Part shown: one piece after another, positions 3,894 through 13,323 of the stretch
How positions within the stretch are numbered: position 1 is the stretch's first letter
Layout: each line of letters begins with the position of its first letter
From: a virus
Taxonomy: Duplodnaviria; Heunggongvirae; Uroviricota; Caudoviricetes
Strand: one strand, 5' to 3'
Virus record (IMG/VR): IMGVR_UViG_2565956709_000005
Coordinates: 1 to 13,323 of that record
Length of the DNA stretch: 13,323 nucleotides
Position numbers and translations under genes: made by a program
Notes under the pieces: model-generated
The model's database searches: none
Told to the model about the DNA's origin: nothing
Seen by the model: the letters and a program-made list of their open reading frames with translations, nothing else

Positions 3894-3988
3894 TTTGTTT
3901 TAACCTCATTACAGATTTCAGGGTGAACGAATCCCTGCCATTGCTGGCATTTTTAATCCGTTGGTATGGCGTTAATATGGCTGGCGGG

Positions 3989-4177
3989 TTATCCAGCCGG
4001 TATTTCGTTATTCAGGTTCAGCGATACTTTTTTTAACGGGAGGCATTCACCGGGGATTTTTTGTTCGTCCCTTACCTGAATGCAGGATGACTTACTGTCA
4101 TAAATTCCGGTAATCACATTTTGTGGCTCACCCGTTATAAGAAAAACGGTCATCACCAGTGCAAATGCTGAAGTCAC
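3989..4177 (-). CDS. Small protein with N-terminal hydrophobic segment (predicted single transmembrane helix or signal anchor), 62 aa, unknown function
   Basis: ORF in track. N-terminus MTSAFALVMTVFLITG is hydrophobic. Start overlaps the stop of the upstream ORF in an ATGA arrangement (4174-4177). Lies in a visibly AT-rich segment. Confidence 0.5.
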   Translation of the reverse strand: MTSAFALVMTVFLITGEPQNVITGIYDSKSSCIQVRDEQKIPGECLPLKKVSLNLNNEIPAG

Positions 4178-4362
4178 TGCTGTTCTCCGATAATACCAAG
4201 TTCAAGAAGGGCAATTCTGGAAAGTATGGAATTATCATTGAGAAGATAAGGTTCATATTTTCTCATCTTAATGGCATCTTCCGTAAACTCCCGGTTACTG
4301 AGCAGAACACCAATATCAAAACAACCTTCAGACGTATTAACGTTTGGTAATAACGTTTCCAT
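4174..4362 (-). CDS. Small hypothetical protein, 62 aa from ATG 4362 (ORF track gives a 97-aa version from 4467)
   Basis: The internal ATG at 4362 is preceded by GAGGA with a 7-nt spacer; I saw no comparable ribosome-binding site at 4467. Translationally coupled to the downstream 62-aa membrane protein ORF. Confidence 0.45.
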   Translation of the reverse strand: METLLPNVNTSEGCFDIGVLLSNREFTEDAIKMRKYEPYLLNDNSILSRIALLELGIIGEQQ

Positions 4363-4927
4363 TATCGCGTCCTCAACAATGAATTTTGTGATGCGGTGCC
4401 TGGTGCCTCCAGGTGACGTTAACCAGTTAACAATTAACGCCGGATACAGAGAATCCACCCATAACACTGTTTTTGGTTTTAACTGTTCCGCGTGCGCTCA
4501 GCCGCATTCACCACATCACAAAATTCACTTTAAAAAGGGCGGCAGAGCAGTCACGGAGTAAAACTGATACCGCCAAACGTCACCAGAAAATTGATAACAG
4601 AGGGCGTTGCAGCGGAGTTGTCACTTAAGCGTATGGTCAACCTGACAACCCGGTGTCCTCAACGGAGGAAGGAATAACCCCGCCATACTTACCGCCGCGC
4701 CATTTCGCGGAGTGCCACAACCGGAAGCGCACGGTCGAACTAAATTTAACGACACCGTACAGAGAGACCAATTTCGCCGTGCGCTTTCGCTTTATGCCCT
4801 GACTTTTCAGGGACATATCCTTTCAGTAAACTGTCAGTGCCGGATGTTCACCCGTGTCCGGCGCACGCACTCCACCTGACCCGTGGAGAACTCCTTAATT
4901 ACCAACCTTAGCTTCGTTGGTTAGCTA

Positions 4928-5146
4928 TTAACGCGGGTATGTAACCATTCTGGCAATGCTTAATGCCGCTGCTTTTTCCAGCCTGGTGATATCCTGCTCC
5001 AGAGCGGACAGATTTTCAGCCTGCTTAGTCCTGGCTTCATTGGCCCATTTCAGATCCTGCGCTGCATTAATTTTCTGGCGCATCCACTCATAAAGTTCAT
5101 CATCGGTATAGTCTGGCGCGATGATGACGGGTTCTCGTTTCTGCAT
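4928..5146 (-). CDS. Small early-left protein, 72 aa, predicted helical; unknown function (positional analogue of kil/cIII-type small early genes)
   Basis: ORF in track; same strand and operon as neighbours. No recognisable motif. Confidence 0.5.
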   Translation of the reverse strand: MQKREPVIIAPDYTDDELYEWMRQKINAAQDLKWANEARTKQAENLSALEQDITRLEKAAALSIARMVTYPR

Positions 5147-5175
5147 ACTGATTCCTCGCGGTGCTGCTTCGCTTA

Positions 5176-5304
5176 TCAGCCGTTAGATTTTGCCGAGCTG
5201 GAAAGCGCCTGTTTAAACTCACTGAAGCTGAGAGCTTCTTCGCCTTCGGCAAGGCCTTCGAAGTATTCTTCGTAAGCCTTTTCCATGATTGTGTCGAAAT
5301 CCAT
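5176..5304 (-). CDS. Small acidic protein, 42 aa from ATG 5304 (56 aa if ATG 5346 is used); absent from the ORF track (below 60 aa)
   Basis: Hand-translated on the minus strand: MDFDTIMEKAYEEYFEGLAEGEEALSFSEFKQALSSSAKSNG. The ATG sits 2 nt after the stop of the upstream 78-aa ORF, with GGTGAG just upstream. Confidence 0.35.
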   Translation of the reverse strand: MDFDTIMEKAYEEYFEGLAEGEEALSFSEFKQALSSSAKSNG

Positions 5305-5305
5305 A

Positions 5306-5542
5306 TCACTCACCTGAGTTTCTTTCCAGCCAGCGACGGGCACCATTTTCGGTTTTAAACGTTTTGCTTTTGGTATACGTCATTGCGGTGAACGTGCCGT
5401 CCTGGTTGGGGAACACGCCACATACCAGAGATTCGCTGTTGCCAAGATCGATAGTATCCATGCTGACCTCATTTCCCCTTAACGCCGGGGGAGCGGAACA
5501 AAAACCTGCTGCATAGTTATTAAAGTTGAACCCTGCCGTCAT
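5306..5542 (-). CDS. First gene of the leftward early operon, 78 aa, unknown function
   Basis: ORF in track. GAGG lies 8 nt upstream of the ATG on the minus strand. About 95 nt downstream of the predicted P_L -10 element. Confidence 0.55.
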   Translation of the reverse strand: MTAGFNFNNYAAGFCSAPPALRGNEVSMDTIDLGNSESLVCGVFPNQDGTFTAMTYTKSKTFKTENGARRWLERNSGE

Positions 5543-5642
5543 GTTCTTACGCCTCGGGCTGGCTACTTAACCCCTGACCACTGCCTGGTAACTCGAGGTA
5601 TTGCCCTGTATTGTGTGGGACGGGATGGGTTGGTATGGGAAA

Positions 5643-5686
5643 ACTATAGGAAATGCCTAATTACTTGTCAATAGGCTATGCCTAAT
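5643..5686 (-). promoter_or_regulatory. Predicted leftward early promoter P_L with two operator sites (O_L)
   Basis: On the minus strand: -35 TTGACA (5671..5666), 17-bp spacer, -10 TATAGT (5648..5643). Two 17-bp dyad sites of the form ATTAGGC-N3-GCCTAAT at 5670-5686 and 5645-5661, centres 25 bp apart. Shares a 23-bp exact inverted repeat with the O_R region. Confidence 0.5.
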
Positions 5687-5779
5687 AATTTGGGCGCGAC
5701 CTAATAGGTGATGGTTTGTGGGAGAGGTAGTAGGAGTTAACTAACGGGAACTAGGAATTTCCCGTCGGACCATATAAGT

Positions 5780-6256
5780 TTAAGTTCCTGTCTTGGTGAT
5801 GTTCTGGCTTTTCCGTTTTGATTCTTGATTTTTCAGATAGTTAGCTACCTTCATTTCCATTGCGGCAATGTAGGCGCGAACGTCATGATCAACCCAACTA
5901 GGCTCCGTAGCATTTCCAGATAAGAGGAAAGCCACAATTGCTCTTTTTTCATCAGAGGCGGCTTGATAAAGGCTGTTTATGTCTAAAAGTTCACTTTTTG
6001 TATCTGAAGTGGATGGGGTTGGTATGGGGTATTCGTTAAGCCCCCAATGCTCTGGACCAACCACATCAGAAAAGAAACGCCATAGTTCTGGAAGTTTGTC
6101 TTTACTTATCGAACCTTTCTTAATCCAGTCATGGATTGATGGTGGTTGGACTTTGAAATGACGTGCGATTTCCGCCTTTGATTTGACGGCTCCTGATGCA
6201 ATTTTTTTGTTAATGGCCTGCTCAATCGCTCGGCCTAAGTCTTTACCACTAAGCAT
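5780..6256 (-). CDS. racR: Prophage repressor with HTH DNA-binding domain, RacR-like, 158 aa
   Basis: ORF in track, divergent from a cro/ydaS-like gene. HTH-like segment SKAEIARHFKVQPPSIHDWIKKG. Resemblance to E. coli Rac RacR (also 158 aa) is from memory, not a search. Confidence 0.75.
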   Translation of the reverse strand: MLSGKDLGRAIEQAINKKIASGAVKSKAEIARHFKVQPPSIHDWIKKGSISKDKLPELWRFFSDVVGPEHWGLNEYPIPTPSTSDTKSELLDINSLYQAASDEKRAIVAFLLSGNATEPSWVDHDVRAYIAAMEMKVANYLKNQESKRKSQNITKTGT

Positions 6257-6283
6257 TGCTTAATAGTCTCCTATGCGCATCGC

Positions 6284-6353
6284 GTTAGGCAATCCCTACT
6301 CTCGATGTATTAGGCATAGCCTATTGACAATTGCATTAGGCTAAGCCTAATAT
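6284..6353 (+). promoter_or_regulatory. Predicted rightward early promoter P_R with operator sites (O_R) between the repressor and cro-like genes
   Basis: -35 TTGACA (6324-6329), 18-bp spacer, -10 TAATAT (6348-6353). Perfect 17-bp palindrome ATTAGGCTAAGCCTAAT at 6335-6351, near-palindrome ATTAGGCATAGCCTATT at 6309-6325, and a degenerate third site at 6284-6300. Site centres are 25-26 bp apart. Confidence 0.55.
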
Positions 6354-6380
6354 TGTTGCGTGTTTTTTGGAGTTCATTCG

Positions 6381-6704
6381 ATGAAAAAAGATAACTATTC
6401 ATTCAAACGAGCTTGTGCTGTTGTCGGTGGGCAATCAGCAATGGCTAGGCTTTTAGGTGTATCTCCTCCAAGCGTAAATCAATGGATCAAAGGTGTACGT
6501 CAGTTGCCTGCTGAGAGATGTCCTGCGATTGAACGAGCAACAAAAGGTGGTGTCCTGTGTGAAGAACTTCGTCCTGATGTTGATTGGACATACTTACGAC
6601 GCTCGTCATGTTATTCGCAGAATATGTCGATGAAGCAACCAAATGACGAAAACGATCATACCCGAAGCATCAAGAGGCAAATGATTCATGAAAATCAAAC
6701 ATGA
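6381..6704 (+). CDS. ydaS: Cro-like HTH regulator, YdaS-like, 107 aa from ATG 6381
   Basis: GGAG lies 9 nt upstream of ATG 6381 (track starts at GTG 6360). HTH segment GGQSAMARLLGVSPPSVNQWIKG. Start matches my recollection of Rac YdaS (MKK.NYSFK.ACAVVGGQSAMARLLGV...), unverified. Confidence 0.7.
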   Translation: MKKDNYSFKRACAVVGGQSAMARLLGVSPPSVNQWIKGVRQLPAERCPAIERATKGGVLCEELRPDVDWTYLRRSSCYSQNMSMKQPNDENDHTRSIKRQMIHENQT

Positions 6705-7113
6705 GCACATCCGCATGGCGATGAATGCTTGGGCATACCCTGATGGTGAGAAAGTTCCTGCAGCTGAAATAGCCCGGACTTATTTCGAACTGGGGATGAC
6801 GTTCCCTGAACTGTACGACGACAGCCATCCGGAAGCCCTGGCCCGTAATACACAGAAAATTTTCCGTTGGCTGGATAAAGACACCCCTGATGCTGTTGAA
6901 AAAATTCAGGCTCTGTTACCGGCGATCGAAAAGGCAATGCCGCCTCTGCTGGTGGCCCGTATGCGCAGTCACAGCTCTGAGTATTACCGGGAGATTGTCG
7001 AACGGCGGGATCGGCTGGTGAAGGATGTCGACGATTTTGTTGCGTCAGCGGTTGTTTTGTATGACCAGATGAATCGCGGCGGCCCGGCAGGGAATGCTGT
7101 GGTGATGCACTAA
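6688..7113 (+). CDS. ydaT: YdaT-like protein (toxic partner of YdaS in Rac, kept silent by RacR), 141 aa
   Basis: ORF in track; overlaps ydaS-like stop by 17 nt; begins MKIKHEHI as I recall for YdaT. Mostly synteny-based. Confidence 0.6.
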   Translation: MKIKHEHIRMAMNAWAYPDGEKVPAAEIARTYFELGMTFPELYDDSHPEALARNTQKIFRWLDKDTPDAVEKIQALLPAIEKAMPPLLVARMRSHSSEYYREIVERRDRLVKDVDDFVASAVVLYDQMNRGGPAGNAVVMH

Positions 7114-7135
7114 AAGCACGGTGTTCGGGGGTTTT

Positions 7136-8098
7136 ATGAGCAGCAAGCTTCATGGTCTTGTCTGGGAAGGGTGCGCCTTCACCGGCATGATCTTATCCAG
7201 GGTGGCGGTTATGGCCCGTCTTGCAGACTACAGCAATGACGAGGGCGTGTCATGGCCTGCCATTGAAACTATCCGGCGTCAGATCGGTGCAAGAAGTGAA
7301 TCCACAGTGAAATCGGCTATTGCAGAACTGGCGAAAGAGGGCTGGCTGACGAAGGAAGAGCGTAAGGTCGGTGGGCGTAATGTAAGCAATATCTATCGAC
7401 TTAATGTGGAAAAACTCGAAGCAGCTGCGGCGGCGGCGCGTGAGTCATATAAACCGAAAAGAAAAATTAGCCCGGCAAAAAATGACCCGTTAACAGTTGA
7501 CCCGTCAAATATTGACCCCTCAACGGTTGACCCGTCAAATTTTGATGGATCAACTGTTGATAAAAAACTGCCGATTAGGGGGGCGATGATTGACCCCGAT
7601 CCGTCAGTATTAAAACCTGATCCGTCAGATAAAAGATCTTCTTGTCCGGACGCTTCGCAACCGGACCCGCAGACGGCTGAACAGGATTTTTTAACCCGAC
7701 ACCCTGACGCGGTTGTGTTCAGTGCGAAAAAACGCCAGTGGGGAAGTCAGGAAGATTTGGTGTGCGCACAGTGGATCTGGGGACGAATCGTGAGTCTTTA
7801 CGAGCAGGCGGCCAGCTATGATGGCGAGATCACTAGACCGAAAGAACCCAACTGGACAGCATGGGCCAATGACGTTCGCACAATGCGGATGCTGGATGGC
7901 AGAACTCACAGACAAATTTGTGAAATGTTTGGGCGTCTCCAGCGGGATTCGTTCTGGGTAAAAAACATCATGAGTCCGGCAAAACTCCGGGAAAAATGGG
8001 ATGAACTGGTTATCCGCCTGGGGCGTTCGCCTGCGCAGCGTTGCGTGAATCACATTTCTGAACCGGACACTGAAATTCCGCCGGGCTTCAGGGGGTAA
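7136..8098 (+). CDS. Phage replication initiation protein (N-terminal winged-helix HTH, O-like), 320 aa from ATG 7136, with ori iterons inside the coding sequence
   Basis: N-terminal HTH-like region (...WPAIETIRRQIGARSESTVKSAIAELAKEGWL...). Central DP(S/L)N/TVD peptide repeats are encoded by the DNA iterons. Position after the cro/cII-like genes matches lambda O. ATG 7136 is preceded by a G-rich stretch; the track's GTG 7121 is the alternative start. Confidence 0.7.
   Translation: MSSKLHGLVWEGCAFTGMILSRVAVMARLADYSNDEGVSWPAIETIRRQIGARSESTVKSAIAELAKEGWLTKEERKVGGRNVSNIYRLNVEKLEAAAAAARESYKPKRKISPAKNDPLTVDPSNIDPSTVDPSNFDGSTVDKKLPIRGAMIDPDPSVLKPDPSDKRSSCPDASQPDPQTAEQDFLTRHPDAVVFSAKKRQWGSQEDLVCAQWIWGRIVSLYEQAASYDGEITRPKEPNWTAWANDVRTMRMLDGRTHRQICEMFGRLQRDSFWVKNIMSPAKLREKWDELVIRLGRSPAQRCVNHISEPDTEIPPGFRG
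7482..7553. repeat. Candidate replication origin: five 12-bp dyad iterons (TTGACCCGTCAA-like) at 15-bp phasing
   Basis: Copies at 7482 (ATGACCCGTTAA), 7497 (TTGACCCGTCAA), 7512 (TTGACCCCTCAA), 7527 (TTGACCCGTCAA) and 7542 (TTGATGGATCAA), each TTGAC-NN-GTCAA-like. Followed by an A/T-rich stretch (7555-7570) and more TGACCCC / CCGTCAG repeats to about 7628. Confidence 0.6.
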
Positions 8099-8138
8099 GT
8101 GTTAATTTCTGGTCATGAGGTAATTTTCAGGAGGGCTT

Positions 8139-8561
8139 GTGGCAAAAGTTTTTACACAAGAAGAGCGGGAAAAAATTAAAGGGCAGGTTGTTGAACTCGT
8201 ACGCCAGAGTGGGCGCGAGACGTTACGACAACTGGAAACTAAAACTGGGGCAACAAGATATCTGATGAGCGTTCTGGCCAGAGAGCTGGTTGCCAGCGGC
8301 GATGTATACAACTCCGGCTACGGGTTATTCCCCTCTGAACAGGCGCGTAAGGACTGGCAAAACGCCCGCAAAAAACTCTCGAGGGCAAAGGTGAAGAAAC
8401 CTGCTGTGGTTGATCCGGACCTTATCTGGTCATCACCTGACGGAGAAATACGTCGCTACGACAGTCGCCTAAACATAATCTGTCGCGAGTGCCGGAAGAG
8501 TGAAGCTATGCAGCGTGTACTGGCTTTCTATCAGGGTAATTTTCAGGAGGCGGTACTGTGA
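8139..8561 (+). CDS. Hypothetical protein, 140 aa, GTG start
   Basis: AGGAGG lies 4 nt upstream of GTG 8139. The 16-nt ribosome-binding-site module GGTAATTTTCAGGAGG occurs just upstream and again at the gene's 3' end. Confidence 0.55.
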   Translation: MAKVFTQEEREKIKGQVVELVRQSGRETLRQLETKTGATRYLMSVLARELVASGDVYNSGYGLFPSEQARKDWQNARKKLSRAKVKKPAVVDPDLIWSSPDGEIRRYDSRLNIICRECRKSEAMQRVLAFYQGNFQEAVL

Positions 8562-8618
8562 GTGAAATTAGCTATCAGGCTTCAATTACCGCTGGCATTC
8601 GCATCAAAGGAGAGGAGC

Positions 8619-8975
8619 ATGGAAATAAAACCAGAGGATGAGTTAAGCAATATCGTTTTATTTCCGGTAAAAGAGGATGACCCTCGTAATCAGGTTAATT
8701 TTCTTTATGAGCCATCGGAAAGACCATATTGTCATCACGCCTCTGTCCGGGTTGACGAAAAAGAGCGTCAGGTCCGCTGTAAAATCTGCGGTGCAGTTGT
8801 GGAGCCATTTGACTGGATGCTCTCTGTGGCGAAAAGAGAAACCAGACTGGCAGATGATGTAAGGCTCTTGCGTCAAGAGGAGCGGGAAAGGCGAAAAAAT
8901 ATAGAAAAGCTAATTCAGATTGAGCGTAACGCGAAAGCGCGGATACGCAGGGCGACAAAATCCAGAACTGAATAA
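8619..8975 (+). CDS. Hypothetical zinc-ribbon-like protein, 118 aa from ATG 8619 (track version starts at GTG 8562)
   Basis: Strong ribosome-binding site AAGGAGAGGAG directly upstream of ATG 8619. Cys/His cluster YCHHASV...CKICG. Basic coiled-coil-like C-terminus. Confidence 0.55.
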   Translation: MEIKPEDELSNIVLFPVKEDDPRNQVNFLYEPSERPYCHHASVRVDEKERQVRCKICGAVVEPFDWMLSVAKRETRLADDVRLLRQEERERRKNIEKLIQIERNAKARIRRATKSRTE

Positions 8976-9068
8976 TTAAATTTAGCTCTGTTAAAAATTT
9001 AATCCTTAACCGGAGGGATTTCTGCACCCTCAGAACATCAGGAGGCCGCCCGAAAGGGCGGTAGTTAA

Positions 9069-9251
9069 ATGCGAAAGTTTAAAATAATTATTGAAACGGG
9101 AATAGCCGGTGGAGATTTCGAGGATGAATTCGAAGTGGATGATGATGCGACGCCTGATGAAATACATGACGAAGCAAAAGATATTTTCTTTAACTACTGC
9201 AATTACTCATATCACGAAATAAAAGACGAAGAGGAAGAACAAAATGGCTGA
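9069..9251 (+). CDS. Very acidic small protein, 60 aa (20 Asp/Glu against 5 Lys/Arg), unknown function
   Basis: ORF in track. AGGAGG (9040-9045), then a GC hairpin (9046-9061), then ATG 9069. Composition counted by hand. Confidence 0.5.
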   Translation: MRKFKIIIETGIAGGDFEDEFEVDDDATPDEIHDEAKDIFFNYCNYSYHEIKDEEEEQNG

Positions 9252-9420
9252 TTTTGGTTCAACTAAATACAACGTCAGTTTTGAAGAATGGCATGAACTG
9301 TTAATGGACTATGCAGAGTTACGTGGTGGCAGTGCTGCTGATGCTGAAGCATGGCGTGATGATTATGAAGCAGGAAAAACTCCGGTCGAAGCATATTGTG
9401 ATGAGTGGGGCGATGAATGA
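9244..9420 (+). CDS. Acidic small protein, 58 aa (16 Asp/Glu against 4 Lys/Arg); absent from the ORF track
   Basis: Hand-translated: MADFGSTKYNVSFEEWHELLMDYAELRGGSAADAEAWRDDYEAGKTPVEAYCDEWGDE. Start overlaps the upstream stop (ATGGCTGA) and its stop overlaps the next ATG (ATGA). Confidence 0.45.
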   Translation: MADFGSTKYNVSFEEWHELLMDYAELRGGSAADAEAWRDDYEAGKTPVEAYCDEWGDE

Positions 9421-9733
9421 GCGAGGTTAATTATCAGGAAGGGCATGAAACGGCGGGGCAAGCAAAAACAGTGGCATGGCGATATCGCTACGTGAAAAAA
9501 AAGGCGTTACGGACTTTCAGGGGAAGTAGTGGTCTGGTGACTGGAAATATGTACCGAAAAAAGAGGATTGTAACGACAGGCCGAACTATGAAATTCAGGC
9601 CTTATTCACTGCCCCGCCAGTCCCGGTTACATCAGAAGAACTGGTTAAAGCTGTGCACTTTTATGAACAACTAAAACGCGAAAATCCACCAGCATCCGGA
9701 AACCTGATTACAGATTCCCAGATAAGGCAATGA
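9417..9733 (+). pseudogene. Disrupted or recoded gene: translationally coupled start at 9417, A8 run with A_AAA_AAG heptamer, protein-like coding in the -1 frame downstream, in-frame TAG at 9527-9529
   Basis: Frame 0 from 9417 is open to 9674 but its C-terminal half is compositionally odd (K/R-rich). The -1 frame from 9530 to 9733 reads protein-like (WSGDWKYVPKKEDCNDRPNYEIQALFTAPPVPVTSEELVKAVHFYEQLKRENPP...) but has no start codon and follows a TAG. Slippery heptamer at 9497-9503. Confidence 0.3.
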
Positions 9734-9903
9734 GCTACCTGGCGCAGAACGGGCTGATAAGTATGGGGAATGTTTTACGATGAATATTTAGACTAAAGAG
9801 TTTGTAACGCTATGTAAGTGATTTTTTCTGGTTTAGATATTTATATATCCGGCCAAATTGAGGTGTGTTTAAATGTAATTGCACATTGATTGTAGGAGGA
9901 ATA

Positions 9904-10083
9904 ATGAAAAACGCATTGCAGTTTTTGTTTGTTGCGTTCTGGTTGTTCGTATCATGTATGCCCATCATCTTCACAGCAAGGTATATGGAAAAAGTTGATG
10001 TTTTGATATTAATATTTGGATATATAAATGCCCTTTTTTTAGGGGTGTTCATGGCGGTCATGTGCATTGAATACTGGCGGTAA
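9904..10083 (+). CDS. Small hydrophobic protein, 59 aa, two predicted transmembrane helices; accessory (moron-like) gene in an AT-rich island
   Basis: AGGAGG (9894-9899) with a 4-nt spacer to ATG 9904 (track lists a longer version from 9865). Sequence MKNALQFLFVAFWLFVSCMPIIFTARYMEKVDVLILIFGYINALFLGVFMAVMCIEYWR. Surrounding 9780-10080 is visibly AT-rich. Confidence 0.55.
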   Translation: MKNALQFLFVAFWLFVSCMPIIFTARYMEKVDVLILIFGYINALFLGVFMAVMCIEYWR

Positions 10084-10138
10084 ATACAGCGAACGCCATT
10101 GGTTTAGTTGGATATTTACTGTGCCGGACAAAAACGGT

Positions 10139-10166
10139 TTGCGGGGAAATCTTAGTTAAGTAGAAT
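10139..10166 (+). promoter_or_regulatory. Predicted promoter of the hok/mok mRNA
   Basis: -35 TTGCGG (10139-10144), 16-bp spacer, -10 TAGAAT (10161-10166). The predicted start near 10173 coincides with a 5' element (10171-10184) complementary to the mRNA 3' region (10547-10561). Confidence 0.45.
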
Positions 10167-10221
10167 GACTGCGGGTGCTTGAGGCTATCTGTCTCAGGCA
10201 TGAACACCAAAAGGCAGATAG

Positions 10222-10295
10222 AGAAAAGCCCCAGTTAACATTACGCGTCCTGCAAGACGCTTAACATTAATCTGAGGCCATATCTATGCTCTACA
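10222..10295 (-). ncRNA. sok: Predicted Sok-like antisense RNA covering the mok ribosome-binding site and start codon
   Basis: Inferred from hok-locus architecture. Minus-strand terminator-like structure (hairpin GCGUC...GACGC nested in a GGCCUCAG/CUGGGGCU stem, then UUUUCUCU) ends near 10222. Weak candidate promoter on the minus strand (-35 TTGCCT 10329..10324, -10 TAACCT 10306..10301). Boundaries approximate. Confidence 0.35.
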
Positions 10296-10498
10296 CACGT
10301 AGGTTAGCCTCTTACGTGCCGAAAGGCAAGGAGAAGCAGGCTATGAAGCAGCAAAAGGCGATGCTAATCGCCCTGATCGTCATCTGTTTAACCGTCATAG
10401 TGACGGCACTGGTAACGAGGAAAGACCTCTGCGAGGTACGAATCCGAACCGGCCAGACGGAGGTCGCTGTCTTCACAGCTTACGAACCTGAGGAGTAA
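10286..10498 (+). CDS. mok: Mok-like reading frame (in-frame N-terminal extension of Hok), 70 aa
   Basis: ORF in track. Starts 19 codons upstream of hok in the same frame, an arrangement I recall for MokC/HokC. GAGG lies 8 nt upstream of ATG 10286. Confidence 0.6.
   Translation: MLYTRRLASYVPKGKEKQAMKQQKAMLIALIVICLTVIVTALVTRKDLCEVRIRTGQTEVAVFTAYEPEE
10343..10498 (+). CDS. hok: Hok/Gef-family type I toxin (small membrane-depolarising peptide), 51 aa, HokD/RelF-like
   Basis: Sequence MKQQKAMLIALIVICLTVIVTALVTRKDLCEVRIRTGQTEVAVFTAYEPEE has the Hok/Gef signature (N-terminal transmembrane helix, ...LVTRKDLCEV.IRTG..EVA.F.AYE...). AAGGAG lies 10 nt upstream. Confidence 0.88.
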   Translation: MKQQKAMLIALIVICLTVIVTALVTRKDLCEVRIRTGQTEVAVFTAYEPEE

Positions 10499-10565
10499 GA
10501 GACCAGGCGGGGGAGAATCCCTCGCCACCTCTGATGTGTCAGGCATCCTCAACGCACCCGCACTT

Positions 10566-10592
10566 AACCCGCTTCGGCGGGTTTTGTTTTTT
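10566..10592 (+). terminator. Rho-independent terminator of the hok mRNA
   Basis: AACCCGC-TTCG-GCGGGTT stem-loop followed by TTTTGTTTTTT. Confidence 0.8.
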
Positions 10593-10664
10593 CCTGGCAT
10601 TCTGGTTTACAATTCGCACGTCAGCCTGAACACCTGACACCTGCTGCGCCAGCAGAGAAAACAG

Positions 10665-10937
10665 ATGGCGCACAAAACCAAATTTCACAATTCTGATACC
10701 GACCTTGCCATCCGGCATGAGCGGCGTTCACACGCATTTAAAACCGACTGGTACCAACACCCACCATGTACTGAAGAACAGGCCGAATGGCTGATTCATA
10801 ACTACCGCAGACGTGGATATGAGTTTAGGAAAGCCCTCACCCTCGATTATCGTCACTGGATAATCTACGTCAGACTCCCTTATTCCGAACGCCCACCGCG
10901 TCCGTCCCGCACATTCCAGCAACGGATCTGGAGGTAA
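10665..10937 (+). CDS. Hypothetical protein, 90 aa, translationally coupled to the downstream HNH-motif protein
   Basis: ORF in track. Its 3' end contains the GGAGG that serves the next gene's GTG start. The antisense ORF here is S/T/R/P-rich and less plausible. Confidence 0.5.
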   Translation: MAHKTKFHNSDTDLAIRHERRSHAFKTDWYQHPPCTEEQAEWLIHNYRRRGYEFRKALTLDYRHWIIYVRLPYSERPPRPSRTFQQRIWR

Positions 10938-10938
10938 C

Positions 10939-11997
10939 GTGCGGGTATTACTTCGATCTGTTCCGGTACCGGAACTTGGGCTGGTGGTCCTTAAGCCTGG
11001 TCGTGAATCCATGCAGGTATTCCGCAGCGGTCGTGTACTGGTGGAGCCGGAACCGAAAAGCATGCGCGGTCTGCCGTCCGGAGTCGTTCCTGCCGTTCGC
11101 CAGCCATTGGCGGAGGATAAATCACTACTGCCATTTTTCAGCGATGAGCGGGTGATTCGTGCTGCTGGCGGTGCTGGTGCGCTGTCTGACTGGCTGTTAC
11201 GCCACGTTAAATCCTGCCAGTGGCCTCATGGTGACTATCATCACAGTGAAATCGTCATACATCGTTACGGTACCGGCGCGATGGTGTTGTGCTGGCACTG
11301 CGACAACCAGCTGCGTGACCAGACCTCCGAATCACTCGGGCAACTTGCTCATCAAAACCTGTCAGCATGGATGATTGACGTCATACGCCATGCAGTGAAT
11401 GGCACGCAGGAGCGGGAATTATCGCTGGCTGAATTGTGCTGCTGGGCTTCTGTAAATGATGTAGTGGATGCCATGACCGAAAATATGGCGCGTCGAATCC
11501 TGAAGCTTCCGGGTGAAAAAATCCGCTCAGTATACCGCGAGAGCGACATCGTACCGGGAGAGCAGACCGCCATCAGCATACTGAAGCAGCGCACAAAAAA
11601 TATTGCGCCGTTGCCTCACGCCCACCAGCAACAGAATCCACCACAGGAAAAGACGGTGGTCAGCATTGCCGTTGATCCGGAGTCACCGGCTCAGTATCTC
11701 CAGCGCCAGAAACCACAACGGGAAGAGATGCCTGTATACACGCGCTGGGTAAAAACGCAGAAATGCATGACGTGTGGCAATCAGGCAGATGATCCGCATC
11801 ACATCATTGGTCATGGACTGGGAGGGATGGGAACAAAGGCTGATGATTTGTTTGTTATTCCGCTGTGCCGTAAATGCCATAGCGAACTACACGCCGGGGT
11901 AAAAGATTTTGAAGAAAAACACGGCAGCCAGCTGTTGTTGCTGATTCGTTTTTTAATGCACGCGAGAAATTCGGGTGTCCTGAAGTGGAAAGCATGA
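10939..11997 (+). CDS. Nin-region protein with C-terminal HNH-type zinc-finger nuclease motif (DUF968-like), 352 aa
   Basis: C-terminus CMTCGNQADDPHHIIGHGLGGMG...LCRKCHSELH has a CxxC...HH...CxxCH...H layout. GGAGG lies 6 nt upstream of GTG 10939. Sits directly upstream of rusA. DUF968 label is from memory. Confidence 0.65.
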   Translation: MRVLLRSVPVPELGLVVLKPGRESMQVFRSGRVLVEPEPKSMRGLPSGVVPAVRQPLAEDKSLLPFFSDERVIRAAGGAGALSDWLLRHVKSCQWPHGDYHHSEIVIHRYGTGAMVLCWHCDNQLRDQTSESLGQLAHQNLSAWMIDVIRHAVNGTQERELSLAELCCWASVNDVVDAMTENMARRILKLPGEKIRSVYRESDIVPGEQTAISILKQRTKNIAPLPHAHQQQNPPQEKTVVSIAVDPESPAQYLQRQKPQREEMPVYTRWVKTQKCMTCGNQADDPHHIIGHGLGGMGTKADDLFVIPLCRKCHSELHAGVKDFEEKHGSQLLLLIRFLMHARNSGVLKWKA

Positions 11998-12363
11998 ATG
12001 ACTGAACGCATAGAATTTGTTTTGCCTTACCCGCCAACGGTGAACACTTACTGGCGACGTCGTGGCAGCACATATTTTGTATCAAAAGCCGGTGAGCGTT
12101 ATCGCCGTGATGTGGCGCTTATTGTTCGCCAGCAGCGGCTGAAATTAAACCTGTCCGGAAGGCTGGCGATAAAGATTATTGCAGAGCCACCGGATAAACG
12201 TCGTCGTGACCTGGACAATATCCTGAAAGCACCACTGGATGCGCTGACGCATGCCGGACTTCTCATAGACGACGAGCAGTTTGATGAAATCAATATTGTG
12301 CGCGGTCAGCGCGTTCCTGGGGGGCGGCTGGGCGTGAAGATTTACAAAATTGAGAGTGAGTGA
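11998..12363 (+). CDS. rusA: RusA Holliday-junction resolvase, 121 aa
   Basis: Motifs ...LPYPPTVNTYWRR... and ...PDKRRRDLDNILKAPLDAL... match the RusA family as I know it. Start overlaps the upstream stop (TGAATG). Confidence 0.88.
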   Translation: MTERIEFVLPYPPTVNTYWRRRGSTYFVSKAGERYRRDVALIVRQQRLKLNLSGRLAIKIIAEPPDKRRRDLDNILKAPLDALTHAGLLIDDEQFDEINIVRGQRVPGGRLGVKIYKIESE

Positions 12364-12917
12364 TCGTAAATATGATATATCCGGAAATTACAGGCAAAAG
12401 CGGCGAGCATTTACGTCTAAAAACGCTGGAAGCCGTCTGGATCCAGGGGAAATTACGGATGTGGGGGCGTTGGTCGTACATAGGTGGTGGCAAACCAGGA
12501 AATATGTTCAATCAGTTGCTGGCATCCAAAACACTTACAAAAACTGCGATCAATGAAGCTCTGCGCAGAATAAAAAAATCAGGGATTGATAAAACTGAGC
12601 TGGAAGCGTTTTTGCGTGAGATGATCAACAGCAAGCAAAAGAGCGGGCTGGCTTATTGTACTGATGCCGAGGCGTTATGTATCGATCGGGTAATTAGTAA
12701 AGTGTTGGCAGAGCATCCGGGATTGATTTGTATCCTCCGACAAAGATATGAAGGGCTGGGAATGAGCAAGCTGAAAATGGCAGAACAGTTAAAAAAGAAT
12801 CACCCTGACTGGAGCCTGAAAACTTGTAGAAATCGCATTGATGTTTGGTTGGCGATGGCTGAAACCATGCTTTTCCTTCCAATGTGCGTGGCACTTCGGT
12901 GCTTTTCTGATAACTGA
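12360..12917 (+). CDS. Putative late-gene antiterminator (Q-like) by position, 185 aa; start may be ATG 12372 rather than GTG 12360
   Basis: ORF in track. Follows rusA as Q does in lambdoid phages and is followed by a promoter-like sequence. No Q-specific motif recognised, so the function is positional inference. Confidence 0.4.
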   Translation: MIVNMIYPEITGKSGEHLRLKTLEAVWIQGKLRMWGRWSYIGGGKPGNMFNQLLASKTLTKTAINEALRRIKKSGIDKTELEAFLREMINSKQKSGLAYCTDAEALCIDRVISKVLAEHPGLICILRQRYEGLGMSKLKMAEQLKKNHPDWSLKTCRNRIDVWLAMAETMLFLPMCVALRCFSDN

Positions 12918-12992
12918 TGATAGAAGTGCATCAGCTATCAATCTTGTTGACGTTCATCAAGGTCTGGACAATACTTACGTTAAGTTCCAACA

Positions 12993-13323
12993 GGTAATGG
13001 TGCCAACTTACTGATTTAGTGTATGATGGTGTTTTTGAGGTGCTCCCGTGGCTTCCATCTCCATCAGTTGTCCCTCCTGCTCAGCTACTGAAGGCGTGGT
13101 GCGTAACGGTAAAAGTACTGCCGGACATCAGCGCTATCTCTGCTCTCACTGCCGTAAAACATGGCAACTGCAGTTCACTTACACCGCTTCTCAACCCGGT
13201 ACACACCAGAAAATCATTGATATGGCCATGAATGGTGTTGGATGCCGGGCAACCGCCCGCATTATGGGCGTTGGCCTCAACACGATTTTACGTCACTTAA
13301 AAAACTCAGGCCGCAGTCGGTAA
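12993..13323 (+). mobile_element. IS1 insertion sequence, left end and insA, truncated by the window edge
   Basis: Terminal sequence GGTAATGGTGCCAACTTACTGAT at 12993 resembles the IS1 inverted repeat as recalled, followed by a complete insA ORF and the IS1 A6C frameshift motif (13299-13305). Confidence 0.88.
13048..13323 (+). CDS. insA: IS1 InsA (transposition regulator; N-terminal part of the InsAB' frameshift transposase), 91 aa
   Basis: Sequence [43 protein letters not shown]... is recognisable as IS1 InsA. Slippery A AAA AAC lies near the 3' end. Confidence 0.9.

Follow-up and report, generated by a model that had tools for sequence, protein, structure and literature searches.

A slippery A_AAA_AAG heptamer in a prophage gene of Escherichia coli that has most probably decayed

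In Escherichia coli dnaX, an A_AAA_AAG heptamer is found together with an SD-like element upstream of it and a stem-loop on its downstream side. According to a systematic study in this species, the motif is highly efficient only with the stimulators of IS911 or IS3, and heptamers lacking stimulators reach 2-10 times the 0.055% background (PMC4066793). The same heptamer occurs at 9497-9503 in the stretch of viral DNA analysed here (13,323 nucleotides, hereafter the window). A first-pass annotation of the window called it highly efficient and left two readings of the surrounding gene, namely a gene decayed by a frameshift plus a nonsense mutation, or a site producing two products. The evidence presented below argues strongly for the former, and we hold with high confidence that 9417-9733 is what remains of a small PHROG 660 family accessory gene that no longer functions, a product of ordinary decay and not of recoding. 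Its pseudogene status was already known, since RefSeq/PGAP annotates this exact span as such.

The window covers the immunity and early functions of an E. coli lambdoid prophage resembling Rac and Qin, with the pseudogene in the early-right operon. The gene order starts with integrase, exonuclease, the DicF RNA, dicB and a RacR-like repressor (5780-6256, minus strand). The rightward operon comprises an HTH protein, a YdaT-like protein, a replication-type HTH protein, DUF977 and three small ORFs before reaching the pseudogene, which is followed by sok/hokD (10173-10498), DUF968, RusA and Q. Positions 9000-10300 are 100% identical to several complete genomes. Compared with L020, the segments 3950-4251, 4885-5330, 11689-11999 and 12332-13323 are about 97% identical or unaligned; the window represents a different strain from the best match for 9000-10300, in line with typical lambdoid mosaicism. 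The annotation coordinates of NZ_CP035819.1 were applied to approximately 5330-11690 only, the rest being about 97% identical or mosaic. The neighbouring features are as follows.

4537-4588, minus strand: DicF sRNA (RF00039, 76.7 bits), adjoining dicB
9905-10083, plus strand: 59-aa ORF (MKNALQFLFVAFWLFVSCMPIIF...), mostly hydrophobic, with a strong SD (GTAGGAGGAATAATG)
10173-10348, plus strand: sok antisense RNA region (Rfam RF01794, 117 bits), preceding hokD
10286-10498, plus strand: mok-like ORF, overlapping hokD

Rfam gave no match over 9417-9733, and elsewhere in the window sok and DicF were its only matches. PGAP leaves the 59-aa ORF out of the RefSeq records that match here, whereas a number of other assemblies include it, and it has no PHROG match; it may be a small membrane protein located between the pseudogene and sok/hokD.

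The locus itself is organised as listed here.

9244-9420, plus strand: upstream small ORF, intact, 58 aa, PHROG 519
9417-9733, plus strand: probable pseudogene, PHROG 660 family remnant; same span in RefSeq, 'frameshifted; internal stop'
9417-9500, plus strand: native N-terminal coding, codons 1-28 (MSEVNYQEGHETAGQAKTVAWRYRYVKK), with the ancestral frame kept according to alignments
9417-9674, plus strand: frame-0 ORF of 85 aa, the product now encoded, with stop TAA at 9672-9674
9495-9502, plus strand: A8 run, a +2 expansion of an ancestral A6 (GTG AAA AAA GGC)
9497-9503, plus strand: A_AAA_AAG heptamer in phase with frame 0
9527-9529, plus strand: TAG nonsense codon, codon 37 of the ancestral frame; CAG, CCG or CTG in intact homologues
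9530-9733, plus strand: ancestral-frame coding remnant, 67 codons plus TGA, without a usable start
9557-9563, plus strand: second A_AAA_AAG (CGA AAA AAG), in phase with frame 0; ancestral CCG AAA AAA GAG (Lys-Lys)
9690-9697, plus strand: junctions of two deletions when compared with the 171-aa form, one of about 90 nt (9690/9691) and one of about 61 nt (9696/9697)
9700-9783, plus strand: remnant of the ancestral C-terminus (KPDYRFPDKAMSYLAQNGLISMGNVLR, then stop) in the third frame, with TGA at 9781-9783

The ATG at 9417, the A8 run, the in-phase heptamer and the TAG all lie where the first-pass annotation had placed them; the second in-phase A_AAA_AAG, at 9557-9563, had been missed. The ATG and the TGA of the upstream ORF overlap as ATGA (9417-9420), an arrangement which suggests that translation of the pseudogene would be coupled to that of the 58-aa ORF. 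Frame 0 reads TAC GTG AAA AAA AAG GCG around the run, and the current product, read from the sequence, has 85 aa, in which residues 1-28 are native, residue 29 is a Lys added by the run and the remaining 56 are out-of-frame and very basic. In the -1 frame the run is followed by GGC GTT ACG GAC TTT CAG GGG AAG TAG (GVTDFQGK, then stop). This frame is open again from 9530 to the TGA at 9731-9733, where it encodes protein-like sequence (WSGDWKYVPKKEDCNDRPNYEIQALFTAPPVPVTSEELVKAVHFYEQLKRENPP...) and keeps the conserved core GDWKYVP..EDCNDRPNYEIQALF..VKAVHFYEQLKRENPP. The earlier description of this downstream coding as startless was correct: the single in-frame candidate in 9530-9733 is a GTG at 9653 (26 aa), with no SD-like sequence upstream. 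The ancestral C-terminus lies in the third frame because of the two internal deletions.

The A_AAA_AAG at 9497-9503 is correctly phased with frame 0, and the motif ranks among the most efficient in E. coli given stimulators (PMC4066793). Nevertheless, a programmed -1 frameshift making two functional products, as in dnaX or the IS3-family transposases, is in our assessment very unlikely. The -1 frame shuts after 8 codons at the TAG of 9527-9529 and, as had been anticipated, an occasional simple -1 slip at 9497 would yield only a short peptide of 37 aa ending there. The conserved family core is absent from this slip peptide as well as from the 85-aa product. No stimulators were detected: the 20 nt upstream of the heptamer (TGGCGATATCGCTACGTGAA) hold no SD-like motif, and the fold of 9504-9575 (z = -0.36) is no better than expected, with 66 of 200 shuffles folding at least as well. 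The efficiency attributed to the heptamer holds for the motif only when stimulators accompany it. Moreover, the heptamer is not conserved, given that intact homologues carry A6 (or an in-frame A7) and near-identical alleles range from A6 to A9. With the heptamer unconserved, the -1 frame limited to 8 codons and neither SD-like motif nor fold detected, the proposal of a site producing two products was not sustained. As for the motif itself, the window contains 9 copies of AAAAAAG, where 4.2 +/- 2.0 are expected (5 of 200 shuffles get to 9), and one A8 run, where 2.2 are expected; slippery motifs in this A-rich DNA are not beyond chance.

Repairing the run to A6 discloses what the gene was. Over residues 2-100 the repaired translation matches PHROG 660 with E = 1e-26; the match of the 85-aa product now encoded has E = 0.006 and is confined to its first ~30 residues (2-31). 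The core missing from that product comprises W38, D41-Y44, N52-P55 and Y57-F63 (invariant). PHROG 660 consists of prophage proteins of unknown function, some relatives being fused to Ead/Ea22-like or DUF551 modules; a Pfam scan of the repaired product, the actual product and the intact homologues found no family except these fused DUF551 or Ead/Ea22 modules. A protein search retrieved 325 relatives in several length classes, nearly all from E. coli prophages. An AlphaFold2 model of the intact 171-aa homologue, built on a 41-sequence alignment, was too poor for a fold search (mean pLDDT 53.9, pTM 0.43). For three homologues the intact status was confirmed on DNA.

119 aa, phage vB_EcoS-689R5 (L005): A6, with CAG at the TAG position
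171 aa, P0018 (L011): A6, with CCG at the TAG position
104 aa, P0002 (L010), tail as in the window: seven A's in frame (AAA AAA AGC), with CTG at the TAG position

The in-frame A7 of P0002 is due to a G-to-A substitution and leaves the frame unaffected. Comparisons of intact alleles give differences of 7/7/16 and 4/7/12 by codon position, an excess at the third position that is expected of a true coding frame. The 171-aa form was found at >=80% coverage in 295 genomes and the 104-aa allele at >=99% identity in 81. Alignment with intact homologues, which the first-pass annotation had put forward as a means of locating the ancestral frame, does so: they have an A6 run and, instead of TAG, the sense codons CAG, CCG or CTG. 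Together with the RefSeq pseudogene on the same span, these codons bear out the reading of frameshift plus nonsense.

Relative to intact homologues, the window thus shows an A6 to A8 expansion, a TAG at codon 37 (where its closest intact relative, phage 689R5, has CAG for Gln) and deletions of 90 and 61 nt compared with the 171-aa form. However, both internal deletions and the displaced C-terminus are also present in the intact 104-aa allele, and the deletions are therefore not the cause of gene death. Judging from the alleles, it is the TAG and the frameshift that would have killed the gene.

Some sequencing platforms tend to make errors in the length of homopolymers, and the A8 run had been flagged as a potential sequencing error. 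Yet replication over independent assemblies refutes the idea that the gene is intact and that its A8 run or its TAG stems from faulty sequencing or assembly, to which we assign a probability close to nil. A 96-nt probe over the site matches in approximately 1164 of 5426 complete E. coli genomes, 340 of them identical, at least 1000 contigs of many different origins carry the exact 85-aa product, and the TAG is present in all sampled alleles of the lineage. Run-length shares were estimated from 60 evenly spaced rows of the 96-nt search, classed by match length per record: about 49% are A8, 6% A7 and 40% A6, with a few showing a further 1-nt deletion. CFT073 is one of the strains with the allele of the window. 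All nine alleles read at the sequence level carry the TAG.

A8 with TAG: the window, M217 and phage 640R1
A7 with TAG: FDAARGOS_1059 and M23917
A6 with TAG: ATCC 8739, Res13, ET846 and phage PhiR42_1

Within the haplotype of the window itself, which has TAG throughout, the run is A6 in L021, A7 in L014 and L015, A8 in the window, L019 and L004, and A9 in L022. Both L021 and L022 are short metagenomic contigs, and the former differs from the window solely by two SNPs and the run length. On this haplotype A8 is found in about 576 genomes against about 79 for A7, A6 and A9 each being found in single contigs. The predominance of A8 could hint at selection, but it is accounted for just as well if the allele hitch-hiked with a prophage lineage that was successful. 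Since A6 to A9 all occur on one TAG haplotype, parsimony indicates that the drift of the run most likely followed the nonsense mutation, although recombination among mosaic prophages could blur this order.

The sister alleles have lesions of their own: a second stop in M23917 (TGG to TGA), the deletion of one G in ET846 and additional stops in the tail shared by PhiR42 and ATCC 8739. These independent lesions are consistent with relaxed constraint. Dead alleles are also held in the phage records vB_EcoS-640R1 and PhiR42_1, which suggests that the gene is dispensable, and PGAP calls a pseudogene at the locus in eight of eight RefSeq records inspected. In ATCC 8739 and Res13 (L016 10-192, L017 10-192) a DUF7167-type gene two ORFs upstream is a pseudogene too, with an internal stop; in these A6 strains with TAG and a long tail the small-ORF module as a whole appears to be decaying.

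The 85-aa ORF is open and widespread and the run is polymorphic in length (A6 to A9), and it could be argued that overprinting has made this ORF into a new gene with a function, or that the A-run acts as a phase-variation switch. We regard both as extremely unlikely. The same alternative frame stops earlier in diverged intact homologues, so that the 85-aa ORF is unconserved; its out-of-frame part is highly basic and without family match. The first-pass annotation had considered that the 85-aa product might be conserved as is, and it does recur on many contigs, but this recurrence reflects the spread of near-identical DNA, a single near-identical allele whose frame is closed in diverged homologues. 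Regarding a switch, in the TAG lineage no run length yields the full-length protein, and hence there is no ON state. Rescue by transcriptional slippage was rejected on similar grounds, as transcripts of the in-frame lengths A6 and A9 would still run into the TAG, as inferred from the sequence.

A more intricate possibility is raised by the second heptamer. The A8 run puts the TAG out of frame, and a -1 slip at 9557-9563 would regain the ancestral frame, giving a chimera of 49 frame-0 residues and 56 native residues (105 aa) with some residual function. Both frame relations that this requires are present in the sequence, and DNA-level equivalents exist on the A8 plus TAG backbone in P0003 (one T added at 9533) and P0060 (one A added at 9584-9585). 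Correction of a 'savior indel' by frameshifting is also a recognised category (PMC5009743). We nonetheless find it very improbable that such a chimera retains function. It would lose GVTDFQGKQWSGDWKYVP, including the invariant or nearly invariant W38, D41, W42, K43, Y44 and V45. The heptamer at 9557 represents plain ancestral Lys-Lys codons, found in A6 alleles too, and no stimulatory structure was detected there (fold z = -0.75), from which a yield well under 1% is expected. By extension, the A8 expansion might be a partial amber suppressor acting through this slip, and the prevalence of A8 over the other run lengths of the window haplotype might be due to that; this, likewise, we judge to be very unlikely, and the A7 and A9 alleles, unable to use the 9557 route, persist too. 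In addition, the P0060 assemblies look indel-noisy, with the adjacent DUF977 and hok genes truncated. In principle a slip at 9557 could yield a low level of near-full-length protein, but the in-phase position of the second heptamer is most likely a coincidence. In both P0003, for which a RefSeq WP accession exists, and P0060 the restored 105-aa ORF skips the TAG out of frame (L006 1501-1818; L007-L009).

Some database entries seem at first sight to offer intact direct ancestors of the window copy, namely P0138 and P0139, which have Gln at the TAG position. They were rejected as such because their DNA has TAG there and does not translate to the protein as recorded: P0138 is the A9 member of the TAG series and P0139 the A6 member (L022 385-702 and L021 601-915, respectively). 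Their Gln evidently comes from a gene caller using a code with TAG as Gln, producing falsely intact proteins, and P0013 is probably the same gene-calling artefact. Genuine reading of TAG as Gln was rejected, as none of 15 window genes contains an internal stop of any kind. The stops of the 15 checked genes are 8 TGA and 7 TAA, none being TAG. TAG stops are rare in E. coli, and their lack in 15 genes is compatible with chance.

Ordinary decay is therefore the reading that we retain, and it most likely proceeded in two steps. In the first, a C-to-T change would have converted codon 37 from CAG (Gln) to TAG. In the second, with the frame no longer under selection, replication slippage would have extended the Lys-Lys A6 step by step, through A7 to A8 and, in certain strains, on to A9. 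The heptamer would then be GTG AAA AAA GGC plus two A's, a by-product of decay. The usual marks of a pseudogene accompany the locus, given that uninterrupted homologues exist, conserved parts are lost and sister alleles bear independent lesions, and it is from these that we infer the absence of function. A counterpoint is provided by P0003, a natural variant which restores an ORF on the A8 plus TAG backbone and thereby indicates that the coding remnant further downstream has not decayed so far that it can no longer be rescued.

The biological weight of the locus is small, as it concerns a dispensable prophage accessory gene in mid-decay. It offers, however, a clean case of a textbook slippery heptamer arising from homopolymer drift after the gene had, most likely, acquired a stop. 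Since such a heptamer can be a by-product of drift, motif-based scans for recoding should demand both conservation and an open -1 frame. The locus also exposes an annotation problem: an 85-aa junk ORF has been deposited as 'hypothetical protein' on at least 1000 contigs, and some pipelines render the TAG as Gln and so derive falsely intact proteins from a pseudogene.

Set beside the described systems, the window site has the heptamer of dnaX, identical, in the right phase and in the same species. It differs from dnaX in that stimulators were not detected, the heptamer is unconserved, the -1 frame stops after 8 codons and the motif comes from a +2 homopolymer expansion in a gene most likely already stop-bearing. 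With the orfA-orfB arrangement of the IS3 family (IS911, IS150, IS3) it shares an A_AAA_AAG-type motif within a mobile element, but it lacks a long overlapping -1 ORF beginning upstream of the motif, shows no pseudoknot or hairpin and belongs to a protein family that is not a transposase. Compared with the 'savior indel' category (review PMC5009743), a -1 slip at 9557 would geometrically offset the +2 indel and avoid the TAG; the window site differs in having no detected stimulator and in the conserved residues that would go. Among PHROG 660 proteins, the repaired window copy retains the recognisable conserved core AWRYRYVKK...GDWKYVP..EDCNDRPNYEIQALF, but the copy is broken by frameshift and stop and, set against the 171-aa form, has become shorter through two internal deletions. 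The closest likeness in behaviour is to homopolymer-tract pseudogenes and contingency loci, in which, as here (A6-A9), run length differs from strain to strain and alters the reading frame. Unlike in contingency loci, the in-frame TAG of the window copy abolishes the ON state, which points to neutral drift and not to a switch.
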